From Candidatus Endomicrobium labiotermitis (GTDB lineage: Bacteria; Elusimicrobiota; Endomicrobiia; Endomicrobiales; Endomicrobiaceae): 64,000 nt of DNA. A program made the translations under genes and the position numbers. The notes below the pieces were generated by a model, which was not told the DNA's origin, did not search any database, and saw only the letters and a list, made by a program, of their open reading frames with translations. The stretch covers positions 2,585 through 66,584 of the forward strand of contig WRFE01000003.1 in the NCBI GenBank assembly GCA_009778965.1. Reading direction: 5' to 3'. Of this stretch, positions 45,796-64,000 are shown in pieces (the first letter of the stretch is position 1; each line of letters opens with the position of its first letter).

Positions 45796-47091
45796 ATGAA
45801 AAAGATTTTTGGCGTGTTGCTGCTTATGATAATTGCTGTTGCTTATGCGGCGGCGGAAACAAAATTAACTTATGACGGTCTTGCGCGCGGACGTTACGAA
45901 TACCATTCAAATCTTATAGACGCGGGTTATACAGGTAAAGATGAAAAAAGTTTTTTCAGGTTTAAATTTCTCGCGGGTATTACTGCTGATTTTGACGAAT
46001 GGGTGTCCGCTTGTTTCAGAATGGGTACAGAAAGCCGTTCTTTTATATACAATGCAGGCGGCAGTACCGAATATAATGTCAACGAATTTTTTATAGACAA
46101 TTTGTATGTAAAAATTCCTTATTTTATGGATGTTTTGGAATTAAAAGCAGGAAGAATGGATTTGCCGATTTCGGAATACGGCGAAGGTTTTTTGATAGCC
46201 GACGGTACTCCCTTAGACGGCTCCAGAACTTGGTACTTTAACGCGATTAAAGCTAAATTTCTTCTAGGTGAAAATAAAACAAGCACCGTTGAATTTATAG
46301 GAATATACAATCCGCGCGTTGATGATGTTTTGCCCGTGATAAACCAAAACACGCCGCCCACGCCTTTAAACGATTCGCTGGAAACCGGATTTGTAGTTTA
46401 CGGAAGAACCGGCGATAAAGATAAGTTGTATTTTGAACCTTATTATATGTATAAACACGAAGACGCCGCCCAAGGCGGACGTCTTGAAGAGGATGTTCAT
46501 ACGTTTGGTTCTTATATGAAATACACGTTAAACGATGTTGCCGTTTTGCGCTGTCAGGGAGCAATGCAGATAAACAATTACGGCAGGGAAATAAATACTG
46601 CTTTTGGCGGATACGTTTTTACAGATTTTTCTTTGGGAATGCTTAACCCGCTTTCAATAGGATATGCTTATCTTTCCGGAAATGATCCGGACACCCTAGG
46701 CGCGGAAGGCTGGAATCCGTTATTTTCCCGTTATCCGTGGATGTCGGAAGCGGTAGGTTATTTATATAGATACGAGTCAGGTCTTTTGTATTGGACGAAC
46801 TTGCAAATATGTAAAGCGGATTTAAACATTTCTCTCAGCAAAGAATTGAAAATTCTTTTGTCCGGCGCTTTGCTTTATGCAAATGAAACCGTTGATAACG
46901 CGTCTGCTATATATCCGATGTTTGGCGAAGGCAAAAACAGAGGAACTCTGGCAGGGGCAAAAGTTTCTTATGTCTTTTCAAAATATGTAAGCTCTTATAT
47001 TTTGTGCGAATATTTTAAACCCGGCGATTTTTATTTTAGCAAAGCGAAAGACTTGGTTTTTGCAAGAATAGAATTGGCTGCTAAATTGTAA
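45796..47091 (+). CDS. Outer-membrane beta-barrel, alginate-export-like, 431 aa
   Basis: Signal peptide; alternating aromatic beta strands; LKAGRMDL..YGEGFLI; GYAYLSG.D; ends in RIELAAKL. Confidence 0.7.
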   Translation: MKKIFGVLLLMIIAVAYAAAETKLTYDGLARGRYEYHSNLIDAGYTGKDEKSFFRFKFLAGITADFDEWVSACFRMGTESRSFIYNAGGSTEYNVNEFFIDNLYVKIPYFMDVLELKAGRMDLPISEYGEGFLIADGTPLDGSRTWYFNAIKAKFLLGENKTSTVEFIGIYNPRVDDVLPVINQNTPPTPLNDSLETGFVVYGRTGDKDKLYFEPYYMYKHEDAAQGGRLEEDVHTFGSYMKYTLNDVAVLRCQGAMQINNYGREINTAFGGYVFTDFSLGMLNPLSIGYAYLSGNDPDTLGAEGWNPLFSRYPWMSEAVGYLYRYESGLLYWTNLQICKADLNISLSKELKILLSGALLYANETVDNASAIYPMFGEGKNRGTLAGAKVSYVFSKYVSSYILCEYFKPGDFYFSKAKDLVFARIELAAKL

Positions 47092-59004: not shown

Positions 59005-59865
59005 ATGCAAAAGAAAGCACTAGGAAGAGGACTTGAATCACTAATACCATCGCTTGCGGCAAACAAGGCGCCGGCAGGGGAAGCGGTCATAACCATAGCT
59101 TTAAATAAAATAAAGCCTAATAGATTTCAGCCAAGACAAAATTTTGATAAATCAAAACTTCAGGAACTTGCGGACTCTATAAATAAGCATGGCCTTGCCC
59201 AGCCTATTTTGGTCGCGCCTTCAATATCTCCCGGAGAATATGAAATTATAGCCGGCGAACGCAGATTCCGCGCTTCAAAAATGGCAGGTAAAAAAGATAT
59301 AAGAGCTATAGTTCAAAAATCGGCTGATGATAAAAAGCGTTTTGATATAGCTTTAATAGAAAACTTGCAAAGGCAGGATTTGGATGCAATTGAAGAAGCT
59401 AAAGCGTACAAAAGACTTATTGAAGAATTCAACCATACTCATGATGATATAGCGGAAATAGTAGGCAAAGACAGATCCGTTATAACAAATACTTTAAGAC
59501 TTTTGGTTTTGCCCGAAGATATCCAGATCTTAATAACGGAAGGGAAGATTTCGGCAGGTCATGGCAGGATGCTTGCCGGCATTGAAGAAGAAGCTGAGCT
59601 TCGTGCGCTTGTAGAACAAATTGTTGAAGAAAAGCTTTCTGTCCGCGCTACGGAAAAAATTGTTTCTAAGAGCAAACTGGAAAAAGGGACGAAGTCCCAC
59701 AAAAAGCAGGAGATTGAGATTGTCCATTTGCAGGAAGAAATTCAAAGAAAACTGGGAACAAAGGTAAATATTTCCGGCAGCAGTAAAAAAGGCAAAATAG
59801 AAATTTATTATTATTCTTTGGAAGAATTGGAGCGTATCGCAAAAGAATTGAATTGTAATATATAA
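59005..59865 (+). CDS. parB: ParB/Spo0J
   Basis: ALGRGL, QPR, IAGERRFRA, ENLQR.DL, GHGR.L. Confidence 0.98.
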   Translation: MQKKALGRGLESLIPSLAANKAPAGEAVITIALNKIKPNRFQPRQNFDKSKLQELADSINKHGLAQPILVAPSISPGEYEIIAGERRFRASKMAGKKDIRAIVQKSADDKKRFDIALIENLQRQDLDAIEEAKAYKRLIEEFNHTHDDIAEIVGKDRSVITNTLRLLVLPEDIQILITEGKISAGHGRMLAGIEEEAELRALVEQIVEEKLSVRATEKIVSKSKLEKGTKSHKKQEIEIVHLQEEIQRKLGTKVNISGSSKKGKIEIYYYSLEELERIAKELNCNI

Positions 59866-60014
59866 AATATTTGTTGATAAATTAAAAATAATTTTTTATA
59901 AAAAATCAGTTTTTGATAAAATAATAAAAATACTTTCAAAAAATTAATTGAAAAATCAATTGATAATGCAAAATGTTAGGATTATGTTAAGTAGAAAGTC
60001 ATAAAAATTGTGGT

Positions 60015-60034
60015 TGTGAATAACTTGTTGATAA
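60015..60034 (-). promoter_or_regulatory. Tandem DnaA-box-like pair in the AT-rich gap after parB
   Basis: TGTGAATAA 60015-60023 and TGTTGATAA 60026-60034, each one mismatch from TGTGGATAA. Confidence 0.6.
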
Positions 60035-60290
60035 CATTTTAAAAATCAGCTAATAAATAGTAGTCAAAAATAAATAAATTTTAAGAATTTTTGCTGATCT
60101 TGCCTTTGAAGTTGTTGTTTATAGTTATAGAATAATCTAGATCTCCGCTATATTTACTTGGAAGGCAATTTAGGAAATAAAGCCGGTAAAATACAATTCA
60201 ATATCAGGGTCATTTCAGCAGTAAATCTGTTTTTTAATTACAGCCAATAAAAGCCCAATCTAAAATTCAAAAAAATTTTGCAAATATCAG

Positions 60291-60319
60291 TTGACAAAAT
60301 TTACCTTTCTGTATACAAT
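60291..60319 (+). promoter_or_regulatory. sigma70 promoter TTGACA-17-TACAAT; predicted +1 coincides with ATG 60326 (leaderless)
   Basis: -35 at 60291-60296, -10 at 60314-60319, 6 nt to the ATG, no RBS. Confidence 0.78.
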
Positions 60320-60325
60320 ATCAAT

Positions 60326-60820
60326 ATGTTCAAAAAGACAATAGCTTTAATTTTTGCCCTGACAATAGTTTTGGGTAACGTTTCTTTTGCCGCTGTGGAA
60401 ATCAGAAGCATGAATTTTTCCGCAAAAGATAACGTTGCTGTATCTTTTAATTCTAATGTATTGTTTGTTCAGGATTACGGCAAAATCCTTTCAAATATAT
60501 GCGATTCTTTGCAAAATGCCTTGCCGATGGCGGTGTTGTCTGCGGATTCATTTAAATTCATGTTTTTTGATAAAAGCAATGCGGAGCATTTTATAATCGG
60601 AGGTGTTACTAAATTTTTTATTAAATTTAGCGCCTTTTTCGTATCGCCTGAAAATATTTATATCGGAAGTATAGTTCTTCAGCAAGCTTTGTTTATGCTT
60701 TTTATGATTATTTCTTTTATGCTAAGTTATTTAGGTTTGTTGCGCCTGTTCAGCGCTGCGTCAAAAATTAATTTTTCAAAAATAAAATATAATGTAAAAA
60801 ATCCCGGTTTTGCGTATTAA
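60326..60820 (+). CDS. Leader membrane protein (signal peptide plus C-terminal TM helix), 164 aa
   Basis: MFKKTIALIFALTIVLGNVSFA...; hydrophobic ALFMLFMIISFMLSYLGLL; stop codon lies in the terminator loop. Confidence 0.7.
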   Translation: MFKKTIALIFALTIVLGNVSFAAVEIRSMNFSAKDNVAVSFNSNVLFVQDYGKILSNICDSLQNALPMAVLSADSFKFMFFDKSNAEHFIIGGVTKFFIKFSAFFVSPENIYIGSIVLQQALFMLFMIISFMLSYLGLLRLFSAASKINFSKIKYNVKNPGFAY

Positions 60821-60836
60821 CGCAAGCCGGGTTTTT
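60803..60836 (+). terminator. Intrinsic terminator-like hairpin overlapping the leader ORF stop
   Basis: cccggttttgcgt-atta-acgcaagccggg followed by ttttt; TAA at 60818-60820. Confidence 0.8.
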
Positions 60837-60856
60837 ACTATCTTAAGAGGAAACCT

Positions 60857-63800
60857 ATGACCTTCAAAAAACTGTGTTCGATTTTTACCGCGGCATGTTT
60901 CATGTTTTCTTTAGGCGGACAAGCTTTTGCCTCAGTGCCGGCAGGAATGCCTGTTGAGAAAATTAATATAGAGAACACTGTTCTCTTTTCCGATAAATTT
61001 GGCGCGGTAACCCAGAACCAAAACTACGGAAGCCCGCAGGTAATCATAAATATTCAAGATTTGCACAGCCATCCGCAGGTACAGAAAAATATAGCGTCAA
61101 TTCTTGAAAATTTGGATAACAAATATAAAATAAAAGCAGTTTATCTTGAAGGCGGCAGCGGAAAAGTTGATGTTTCATGGCTTGAAAAGGTTTCGGCTTC
61201 AAATAATGCTTTGATAGACCAAATGATAAAAGACGGATCTTTAACAGGTGTTGAATTATTCGCGGTTACGAATAATAAAAATAATATTTACGGACTTGAA
61301 AATACGGCAGTCCACCGCAAAAATCTGGAAAGGCTTGGAATGATTTATGATAACGAATCAAAATATACGCAGAAACTAAACAGAATTGAAAATGAAGTTA
61401 ATTATCTGTATAAAAAATACTCGGGCAAAGAAAATAAAAAATTCTCAAATGTTGTCGCAAAGTATCGCAGCGGAAAAATTGATGCGGTTAAGTATTATGA
61501 AGAAATGATTAAGGCAGCAGAAAGAATCAATGCCAATCCTGGCAAATACGATAATATTTTTTCGATAAATTTAGCGGATTTTTATGAAATACAAAGAGTT
61601 GCCGCGATAGACAGATTGTCAAAACAACTTGATACCAAAAGACTGAATGCCGAACTGCAAAAATATTTATCCGAACTTCAAGGAAGAATAAGTTATTCCG
61701 AATATAGAAACCTTCTTGAAAATACCGATAACTTACAGGATATCGGCATGGCAGTTAAGTACATAAGAGCTTACGGCGTTGACGGCAAAAGGATGCCTCA
61801 GCTTAAAGCGTTTGTTTATATAAAAGAATTGAGCTCGGATATTAATCCGGTTGAGCTTTACGGACAGGAGCAGCTGCTTCGCGAAAAAATAATGTCGGCT
61901 TTTTCAGCTTCAAAGCTGGAAAGCGAAACTGTGTTTTTAAAAGATTTTTATATGTATTTTTCAAACTATATGAAAAATAATCTTACGGCTGCCGACGAAG
62001 AATATTTTAACGGAAGATTTGAGCTTTTTTCAAACATTTATGGTAAATACGCGGCGGTAAATATTATTAAGGAAATGGAAAGTGAGTTTCCTGTTTTAAA
62101 TTCGTACTATGCCGCTAACAATAAAAGAAATGAAATTTTTATTGAAAATATAGAAAAAAATACAAAGCTTGTTTCCGGGCTTACAAAATCAGGAAAATCT
62201 CCGAACGAAATGTTGGAAAATGCGAAAGAAATTATAGTTGTTGTTTCCGGCGGTTATCACAGCCGCGGGCTTAATGAAATTTTAGACGGCAAAAAAATAA
62301 GCCACATGACAATAACCCCCAGAATTTCCGGCGGAGTTGAAAGCGCTCTTGCCAATTACAGACAAATTATAACGGAGCAAAGCCGTTTTTTTAAAGAAGC
62401 TTTGGCTTTTGCGGTAGCTTCTCAAATGCCGGGATCGAAAAAATTTGAGCTTATTGTTAATACCGTAAACGATCTTCTTAATAAAGTGGAATTCAATGAT
62501 AAAAATATTGAAGATTTAAGATTTGAGCTTGAAAAAGTTTTGGGAGAAGCCATAAGAATCGAAAAGTCCGACTCTGACTCTAATAAAGTATATATAAAAT
62601 CCGCTTCAGGCTTTGAGGTTTTAATCAGTAATGAAAACAATGCTATGCAGGCAATCCCAGTGGCGCCTTCGTCGGATTTAAAATTAGGGACTAAAGAGTT
62701 TAAAGCGTTTATGGGAAAAGCCTTTAACTTGTCGTCGCTTGCAAACATAATAGATGATAATACTTATGATTTTTGGAAAAAGATTTTCTTCGCAACGACT
62801 TTTGACAATGATTATGCCGACGGATTTTATCCGGAAGTCGAAAGATTAATCATTGCTCATTCGTATGATAGACTAAATGAAATTGACGGTTTTCCTATAG
62901 AACAATTAGCCAGAACTCCCAAAGATTTTCAAATGAAAGTTGTAAGGAAACAATTGGACATAGATTCCGGAGCCGTATCTGCGGACAGAGCGTCATCTTC
63001 CAATTGGTCAGGGTTTAAGAGTGCTGCGGCAAGAACAATACTAGGATTAATGCTTTTTGTAAGTTTCTTGTCTATTACGTCTTGTAGTTTGTTTGATCCG
63101 GGAAATCCCCCCGGAATAGTTCAAACTATACCTGACTTCAGCAAACAAAGCATTAAAAGCGTTGAATCCGTAAACGTTAAAACAACAAATGGAATAAGAC
63201 AGCTTGTTGTCGAAAATCAAGATGGCAAAGAACTGGCGTTAACAGGTAAAATTGTTTGCGTGGGTCCTGAAGCATTTACTTATTACGGGCATGAAAGCGT
63301 GGTTAAAATGATGAATTTTGCCGGCGCTACTACAATGAGATTATACGAGCTTCCATATGGAGATGTCGGGAAAACGCTTGAATTGTTAAACTATTTCAAA
63401 GAACACGGAATAACCGTTATAATGGGTTTTTCCGTTGAGGATATGCGTCCAGGAGCCGTTGGAGAACGTTTTTTTGAGACAACTTATACTGATGAAAACG
63501 GAGAAACAAAAAAACTGGGAAATCATTCTCAAATTCTTTTTTATGAGGTTGGAAATGAAGTAAGGCTTGTTTTTGGCGAATGGGTTCTTCAAAAAAACAA
63601 AGGGGACAGATTTGACGGCGCCACGTTTACCGAAAGCGTATGGAATGATCTGTTCAAATCATTTTTATCAAAAGTAAAAAGTTCTACGGAAAGGCCGTTT
63701 GGAACGGTTTTCGCCGATGTTCCTGATGTTAAAACGGTAAATTTTTATAAAGACTATGTGAGTATTATGGGAGTAAACTGTTACAGAGGGCACGCAAATG

Positions 63801-64000
63801 ATCCTGGCAGCTGGAGTTTCATGGATGTAAACGGCAAGCATGCCGGAGAACAGCTTTTGGCAATAACAGATGACGATATATGGGTTTATTTTGCGGAGTT
63901 TGGCATAAGCGCCAGAACTACCGGCGCCAGAATGGGACAGTACGATTTTGAAATTGACGGAAAAAGAGAGCAGTCTGAAGTGGGATATAGGCTTTTTCAA
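60857..64000 (+). CDS. 5' part (>=1048 aa, runs off the window) of a very large exported protein: signal peptide, ChaN/EreA-like domain, internal TM helix, clan GH-A glycoside hydrolase domain
   Basis: Frame read by hand is open from ATG 60857 to 64000; RBS agagga; IQDLHSH..Q.NI, YLEGG, GGYHS; GATTMRLY, YEVGNE, MGVNCYRG, FAEFG. Confidence 0.9.
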   Translation, partial: MTFKKLCSIFTAACFMFSLGGQAFASVPAGMPVEKINIENTVLFSDKFGAVTQNQNYGSPQVIINIQDLHSHPQVQKNIASILENLDNKYKIKAVYLEGGSGKVDVSWLEKVSASNNALIDQMIKDGSLTGVELFAVTNNKNNIYGLENTAVHRKNLERLGMIYDNESKYTQKLNRIENEVNYLYKKYSGKENKKFSNVVAKYRSGKIDAVKYYEEMIKAAERINANPGKYDNIFSINLADFYEIQRVAAIDRLSKQLDTKRLNAELQKYLSELQGRISYSEYRNLLENTDNLQDIGMAVKYIRAYGVDGKRMPQLKAFVYIKELSSDINPVELYGQEQLLREKIMSAFSASKLESETVFLKDFYMYFSNYMKNNLTAADEEYFNGRFELFSNIYGKYAAVNIIKEMESEFPVLNSYYAANNKRNEIFIENIEKNTKLVSGLTKSGKSPNEMLENAKEIIVVVSGGYHSRGLNEILDGKKISHMTITPRISGGVESALANYRQIITEQSRFFKEALAFAVASQMPGSKKFELIVNTVNDLLNKVEFNDKNIEDLRFELEKVLGEAIRIEKSDSDSNKVYIKSASGFEVLISNENNAMQAIPVAPSSDLKLGTKEFKAFMGKAFNLSSLANIIDDNTYDFWKKIFFATTFDNDYADGFYPEVERLIIAHSYDRLNEIDGFPIEQLARTPKDFQMKVVRKQLDIDSGAVSADRASSSNWSGFKSAAARTILGLMLFVSFLSITSCSLFDPGNPPGIVQTIPDFSKQSIKSVESVNVKTTNGIRQLVVENQDGKELALTGKIVCVGPEAFTYYGHESVVKMMNFAGATTMRLYELPYGDVGKTLELLNYFKEHGITVIMGFSVEDMRPGAVGERFFETTYTDENGETKKLGNHSQILFYEVGNEVRLVFGEWVLQKNKGDRFDGATFTESVWNDLFKSFLSKVKSSTERPFGTVFADVPDVKTVNFYKDYVSIMGVNCYRGHANDPGSWSFMDVNGKHAGEQLLAITDDDIWVYFAEFGISARTTGARMGQYDFEIDGKREQSEVGYRLFQ

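Follow-up and report, generated by a model that had tools for sequence, protein, structure and literature searches.

A stop codon inside a terminator hairpin as a candidate translation-dependent gate on giant genes of the Endomicrobiaceae

Candidatus Endomicrobium labiotermitis (Endomicrobiaceae, Elusimicrobiota; genome of 1.89 Mb, 38% GC) encodes a giant protein of 2182 amino acids (aa) whose gene starts just behind a predicted intrinsic terminator, and the preceding 164-codon open reading frame (ORF) has its stop codon in the hairpin of that terminator. The locus is near the end of the 64,000 nucleotides (nt) of contig WRFE01000003.1 analyzed here (positions 2,585 to 66,584, hereafter the window). 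It raises the question of how transcription gets past the hairpin into a 6.5-kb gene, and why the small gene ends inside it. The element is, on balance, probably a ribosome-occluded intercistronic attenuator of the kind known from Escherichia coli pyrBI and Streptococcus gallolyticus pil1, coupling transcription of the giant gene to translation of the first cistron. The features of the locus, numbered from the first letter of the window and all on the forward (+) strand, are as follows.

60291-60296 (+): -35 hexamer TTGACA, a consensus match, with a 17-nt spacer to the -10 hexamer
60314-60319 (+): -10 hexamer TACAAT, 6 nt before ATG 60326; the mRNA is predicted to be leaderless
60326-60820 (+): small ORF of 164 aa, the first cistron, for a lineage-specific membrane protein with a signal peptide, a variable middle, a C-terminal transmembrane (TM) segment and a basic tail
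60326-60391 (+): predicted signal peptide, aa 1-22, cleavage SFA/A, from sequence and hydropathy; the AlphaFold 2 (AF2) model has a helix at 2-16
60653-60760 (+): C-terminal TM helix region, about aa 110-145, from hydropathy; AF2 helix 116-155, with a predicted local distance difference test score (pLDDT) of about 89
60728-60751 (+): motif YLGLLRLF, aa 135-142, invariant and placed where the TM helix ends on the cytoplasmic side
60794-60838 (+): intrinsic terminator/attenuator hairpin, from the RNA fold and also flagged in the promoter/terminator scan
60818-60820 (+): small-ORF stop codon TAA, within the hairpin loop and reaching the first right-arm base (class loop-edge)
60832-60836 (+): U-tract of the terminator (T5 in the sequence, T5-T8 in relatives)
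60845-60850 (+): Shine-Dalgarno sequence AAGAGG of the giant gene, 6 nt before ATG 60857
60857-64000 (+): 5' part of the giant gene, with a signal peptide, a conserved IQDLH N-domain and internal TM segments; the gene runs past the window end

The hairpin is that of a canonical intrinsic terminator, with a GC-rich core stem of 60803-60815 paired with 60820-60831 around a 4-nt loop (60816-60819), and A/U pairs extend the stem to 60794-60838. The 91 nt around the stop fold with a free energy of -24 kcal/mol (z = -4.1), and none of 200 shuffles folds equally well. The small ORF's final five or six codons make up the left arm, which by this geometry a ribosome at the end of the ORF would occlude. 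The U-tract is followed within 20 nt, ribosome-binding site (RBS) included, by the giant ATG, and the RBS is unpaired with the hairpin in both the minimum free energy and the centroid folds. No competing antiterminator structure appears in the fold of 60780-60870, and no Rfam family matches 59800-61200, even at E up to 1. The hairpin sequence is unique in the genome. Identity with a repetitive extragenic palindromic element or a mobile repeat was rejected, each hairpin of this kind occurring only once in the genome.

The promoter TTGACA-17-TACAAT scores 11/12 against the consensus and is the top promoter-like site in the scan of 59800-61200; relatives have the same TTGACA-17-TAnnnT arrangement ahead of the small-ORF ATG. 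A consensus scan and comparison with relatives found no conserved promoter in the stretch from the hairpin to the giant ATG, and a promoter inside the small ORF would still face the hairpin before the giant gene. An initial annotation of this DNA had placed the promoter, the 164-aa ORF with its signal peptide and C-terminal TM segment, the hairpin with U5 and with the TAA in its loop, the RBS and ATG 60857 at these same positions. The fold adds that the TAA sits at the loop edge. The annotation's two further points about the layout also hold up: a ribosome on the last codons would cover the left arm, and there is no room for a separate giant-gene promoter after the hairpin other than a weak, non-conserved 8/12 site (see below).

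In the mechanism that we favor, the 164-aa ORF and the 2182-aa gene would form one operon transcribed from the promoter at 60291-60319. A terminator hairpin must fold while the polymerase is on the U-tract, and a ribosome whose A site is within about 10-15 nt of the stem prevents folding. A ribosome close behind the polymerase at the U-tract would hold the left arm and block the hairpin, with read-through into the giant gene as the outcome. When the small ORF is untranslated or its ribosome lags, the hairpin would form, and transcription would end at about 60836 or pause until a ribosome arrives. Transcription of the 6.5-kb gene would in this manner depend on the first cistron being translated at the time, in close coupling. 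Terminated short transcripts of this locus would still encode the complete small protein, and an excess of that protein would be a likely stoichiometric by-product. Because rho is present in the genome (669 bits), the device would add to Rho-dependent polarity and not replace it; the idea of a lineage without Rho, using such hairpins as a substitute, was rejected on the same evidence.

The physical effect has been measured in E. coli, where termination at tR2 dropped from about 90% to <10% when a stop codon was brought from 28 to 5 bp ahead of that terminator, and removal of translation restored it (PMC4824070). Tight coupling is described as a general shield from intrinsic terminators (PMC5021804). 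The ribosome on the S. gallolyticus pil1 leader ORF destabilises a premature terminator (PMC3894217). The distance from stop to terminator has served as a proxy, short distances marking runaway transcription and long ones coupling (PMC7858274), and the general pattern of the window genome fits the long, coupled type.

The initial annotation had suggested looking for the same layout of ORF and hairpin before other giant genes. The survey returned 50 distinct small-ORF loci in nine genera, drawn from termite-gut and other metagenome-assembled genomes named Endomicrobium, and in all 50 the small ORF reaches a hairpin followed by a U-tract of 5-8. The loci fall into four classes by where the ORF ends.

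33 loci, the window included: stop in the loop, loop edge or apical stem
5 loci, one genus: stop at most 4 nt 5' of the GC stem, inside an A-tract that pairs with the U-tract
8 loci: ORF runs through the hairpin and ends past the U-tract or overlaps the next start (ATGA)
4 loci, four genomes of one genus: ORF fused in frame to the giant ORF, with no stop, RBS or ATG between them and with hairpin and U-tract inside the frame

The ordinary order of stop, spacer and terminator, with a gap of at least 12 nt, occurs at none of the 50 loci. The next gene starts 13-28 nt downstream of the hairpin in most loci and is a giant gene in about 45 of the 50. The fused copies are L048, L050, L055 and L094, each the second copy in its genome. 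An in-frame fusion is a Rosetta-stone link and suggests that the small and giant proteins work together. Termination in the run-through and fused variants would leave a transcript that lacks a stop codon, and the hairpin there therefore could not serve to make extra small protein, but only as a translation-dependent gate.

Stem sequences are unrelated between subfamilies (cccggttttgcg, gcatatagcat, aagctctgcctt and ctctgtctaaa). Within subfamilies the per-locus folds show compensatory changes, such as CCCGG/CCGGG to CCCGT/ACGGG and CCGGC/GCCGG to CCGAC/GTCGG. In a consensus fold of eight hairpins aligned with MAFFT, the right arms were misaligned and only 2 covarying pairs appeared, and the per-locus folds were relied on instead. 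The C-terminal residues of the protein track the stem sequence (PGFAY, KAYSM, VKLCL and TLSK), with no conservation across subfamilies. The conserved C-terminal residues (KNPGFAY) that the initial annotation had led us to expect are thus not a property of the family. Since the stems are unrelated, their changes compensatory and the last residues dictated by the stem, what is conserved, as judged from these comparisons, is an RNA geometry and not a C-terminal peptide. This geometry of ribosome and terminator is kept through complete stem turnover, in paralogs and inside fused ORFs, and by that comparative measure it is under selection.

The window genome itself provides a control, made with gene calls of our own and an RNAfold-based terminator search, both simple implementations. 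Among 96 confident terminators, 83 begin at least 12 nt after the stop and 13 have a gap of <12 nt; because most keep this distance, compaction of stop and terminator is not the habit of the genome. Only six overlap the stop codon, and four of the six are at small ORFs ahead of giant paralogs (contigs C3, C46, C37 and C5). A fifth small ORF before a giant paralog (C48) has its stem 6 nt past the stop, and in a sixth (C19) the frame passes through the hairpin. The short stop-to-terminator geometry is enriched at small ORFs before giant paralogs (Fisher p = 2e-5), and the module is present at 6 of the 14 giant paralogs. Four of the six module ORFs are not detectably homologous to the window ORF. 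Their architecture is the same, from a hydrophobic segment at the N-terminus to a C-terminal TM helix with a tail of 16-29 residues behind it. The motif YxGLLRLF is missing from four same-layout small ORFs of the genome. The other two stop-overlapping terminators have no giant gene after them. One is on C1 (- strand, ORF 46350-46944 in strand coordinates, 198 aa), where the stem starts 13 nt before the stop end, and the other, on C67 (-54), looks spurious.

The small ORF had been taken for a leader, and its protein family suggests more than that. By profile search, 32 of 89 Endomicrobiaceae genomes, from 9 of 15 genera, carry the family at 1-4 copies each, with homologs of 156-177 aa. In a collection of 5.8 billion proteins it matches only Endomicrobiaceae proteins annotated as hypothetical, and neither Pfam nor NCBIfam has a match. 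The N-terminal signal-like segment is MFKKTIALIFALTIVLGNVSFA, followed by an AxA-type cleavage site before A. In twelve aligned homologs the N-terminus is signal-like, an FV(K/Q)DY segment is present, the middle varies and a hydrophobic C-terminal helix is accompanied by Y-x-G-L-L-R-(L/V)-F, after which comes a basic tail of 12-22 residues. Y135, G137, L138, L139, R140 and F142 are invariant in the 12 sequences. The AF2 model has a mean pLDDT of 51, with only three helices predicted with any confidence. Because the family is conserved, is fused to the giant protein in four genomes and precedes an ABC-F operon in one genus, the small ORF is, on these comparisons, a real and conserved membrane protein restricted to the Endomicrobiaceae and not a mere leader.

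The hairpin might instead be a constitutive partial terminator. Most transcripts would then end after the small gene with stabilised 3' ends, which would hold the small product at a fixed high ratio to the giant one; simple compaction would account for the stop in the loop, and ribosomes would have no regulatory part. This account also covers the case of a polymerase that outruns the ribosomes in this lineage. Internal terminators that set stoichiometry are common in operons, as in rplL-rpoB and rpsU-dnaG, a terminated window transcript encodes the whole small protein with its stop 16-18 nt before the 3' end, and AT-rich loops readily hold stop codons. However, the distance kept at 83 of the 96 terminators of the genome and the specificity of the overlap for small ORFs before giants speak against compaction. 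At the 12 of 50 loci that are run-through or fused, termination would yield non-stop transcripts and no extra small protein, and in every locus the AT-rich tail of the ORF is open up to the hairpin. We therefore consider a purely constitutive terminator unlikely, while giving it some weight. It is quite improbable that the hairpin is no terminator at all and serves a full-length bicistronic mRNA instead, as an element of RNA processing or stability or as a device for translational coupling. Hairpins between cistrons can determine the stability of mRNA segments, as in the puf and mal operons, and the stop-to-start distance of 25-36 nt and the ATGA overlaps in some relatives would be compatible with termination-reinitiation. 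Yet the U-tract of 5-8 directly after the stem in every locus is a termination signature for which a stability hairpin has no need, and the RBS lies outside the structure.

An export or insertion monitor like SecM, VemP or MifM would use the same hairpin differently: YxGLLRLF would arrest the ribosome, the polymerase would pull ahead and the terminator would fire, turning giant-protein synthesis off when export is saturated. The small protein has a predicted signal peptide and is close in size to SecM (170 aa) and VemP (159 aa), its variable middle has no AF2 fold (pLDDT 51), its conservation peaks at an invariant motif 12-22 codons ahead of the stop, and the downstream product is a large exported protein. 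Against this, the motif is absent from the four same-layout small ORFs noted above, and its position at the cytoplasmic end of a TM helix is ordinarily read as structural. Subfamilies have no conserved residues in common at the stop, the gene behind the hairpin does not encode an export factor, the giant-gene RBS is not sequestered, and the fusions in four genomes point to a working protein partner. Such a monitor is highly doubtful here. Its most specific form, a new monitor with a transcriptional output in which YxGLLRLF slows or arrests the ribosome until Sec or YidC engages the chain, and the terminator stops giant-gene transcription under export saturation, would reverse the logic of SecM at the level of transcription and is less credible still. 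The gating of giant-gene transcription by the upstream ORF, as first put forward, is therefore kept in part: translation-gated read-through is supported by the conserved, genome-atypical geometry and by the E. coli precedent (PMC4824070), whereas nothing points to export-dependent stalling or to the export state as the signal.

Several points weigh against the ribosome-occluded attenuator. We infer termination, read-through and the transcription start site (TSS) alike from sequence, and the status of Elusimicrobiota as coupled or runaway is drawn only from the distance proxy, which for this genome depends on 96 predicted terminators and our own gene calls. Relatedness among the source genomes makes many of the 50 loci non-independent and leaves about six independent hairpin classes. 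The module is absent from 8 of the 14 giant paralogs in the window genome, and giant-gene expression therefore does not require it. In one genus the gene behind the module is that of an ABC-F ATPase and not a giant gene. Finally, the window locus has a weak 8/12 promoter-like site (TTAACG-16-TATCTT, 60818-60844) that overlaps the right arm of the hairpin and the U-tract and would place a TSS about 6 nt ahead of the giant ATG. Relatives lack this site, and an embedded promoter was rejected as a conserved feature.

The ABC-F arrangement is found in five loci of one genus, in which the ATPase gene after the hairpin is followed by genes of 1379 and 2271 codons. At L103 (1024-14284; likewise L082, L084, L087 and L095) the stop of the small-ORF paralog is in the terminator loop. 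The ATPase has two ABC domains and an ABC_tran_Xtn linker, and the next two genes encode a 1379-aa HD-domain protein and a 2271-aa protein. In Firmicutes, ABC-F genes are frequently controlled by ribosome-dependent attenuation.

The giant gene belongs to a family defined by its N-domain (IQDLH...GGYH), with 14 paralogs in the 1.9-Mb window genome. Those beyond the window are on contigs C19, C48, C5, C46, C27, C37, C2, C12, C22, C13, C51 and C9. Many relatives have 12-21 copies, with open frames of up to about 9,000 codons, and the family is absent from one complete 1.6-Mb genome of the same genus. The 2182-aa length comes from the whole-genome copy, which continues beyond the window end. Neither half of the protein has a Pfam or NCBIfam match. 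The AF2 model of the N-domain has a pLDDT of 76.5, and a Foldseek search with it against the PDB gave nothing with E <= 0.001. The erythromycin esterase EreC came only at rank 20 with a probability of 0.21, and a ChaN/EreA relationship is a conjecture.

ATG 60326 follows the -10 hexamer by 6 nt and has no Shine-Dalgarno sequence, so the transcript is predicted to start at or next to the AUG, which makes a leaderless first cistron plausible. The spacing of 6-8 nt between the -10 hexamer and the ATG is conserved in the clade of the window, which supports this. Across the genome, an ATG opening an ORF of at least 80 codons follows at 6-8 nt in about 12% of the strong promoter matches (TTGA[CA]A-16/18-TAnnnT) and at 1-5 nt in none, which suggests that leaderless mRNAs form a sizeable class in this organism. 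Of the six modules in the genome, three have leaders with Shine-Dalgarno sequences. The ATG at +1 that the initial annotation proposed is thus plausible from the -10 spacing and typical of the clade, but it is neither universal among the modules nor rare in the genome, and its standing as a special feature of the module is weakened.

In the E. coli pyrBI attenuator, a leader ORF is translated through the terminator. Like the element described here, pyrBI has a single intrinsic terminator and no antiterminator, and a close-following ribosome blocks the hairpin to allow read-through; pyrBI is also discussed in PMC4824070 and PMC5021804. The pyrBI leader is a dedicated 44-codon peptide with pausing sensitive to uridine triphosphate, whereas the window ORF encodes a conserved 164-aa membrane protein with no evident pause or nucleotide sensor. 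The pyrBI stop is beyond the hairpin and that of the window is in the loop, though eight relatives read through the hairpin. In pil1 of S. gallolyticus, too, the reach of a ribosome to a premature stem-loop terminator decides the transcription of genes for large surface structures (PMC3894217), but there phase-variable GCAGA repeats within a short leader determine how far the ribosome gets. The window locus has a fixed geometry and no repeat, and its ORF codes for a real protein. As in attenuators of these two types, an intrinsic terminator precedes the gene that would be regulated, the ORF and its ribosome footprint overlap the hairpin, and no independent promoter is conserved; a short, dedicated leader peptide with no independent function is what this locus does not have. 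The engineered tR2 constructs, in which a stop near or inside the terminator represses termination in a translation-dependent manner (PMC4824070), supply the physical basis assumed here. They are synthetic constructs in a model organism, whereas the present layout is natural and conserved in an uncultured lineage.

SecM, MifM and VemP resemble the small protein in being exported upstream products of similar size with a possible effect on the downstream gene through ribosome position. Their main action is on translation, where they unmask an RBS; they control export factors (SecA, YidC2 and SecDF2) and have demonstrated arrest motifs. None of these traits was found at this locus. In rplL-rpoB and rpsU-dnaG a terminator between co-transcribed genes also lowers distal expression, but it is not overlapped by the upstream stop, and dependence on translation is not its defining property. 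The trp, his and leu attenuators combine alternative antiterminator/terminator pairing with regulatory codon runs, neither of which is present at the window locus; no such codon runs occur in the 164-aa ORF. The mechanism, put forward at first as undescribed, is of a known kind (pyrBI/pil1).

The small-ORF promoter is separated from parB by an AT-rich spacer (59866-60290, 425 nt) with three DnaA-box-like 9-mers at 59872, 60015 and 60026, each with one mismatch. The spacer also has the motif TTGTG(A/T)ATAA..TTGTTGATAAC, which occurs at the same place in two other genera. This spacer may be origin-proximal.

How ribosomes occlude terminators is well understood for E. coli constructs and a few leader peptides. 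The principle is thus known, and it is its conserved natural use, as the comparison of these genomes presents it, that appears to be new: as far as we could find, the literature has no description of a natural full-size protein gene acting as the leader, conserved across a bacterial family and its paralogs. If the proposed attenuation is correct, a terminator with a stop codon in its loop would be a compact natural part for translation-dependent control in synthetic operons. It would also be indirect evidence for transcription-translation coupling in Elusimicrobiota. These deep-branching, mostly uncultured bacteria would then commit their polymerase to genes of 2,000-9,000 codons only while translation keeps pace.

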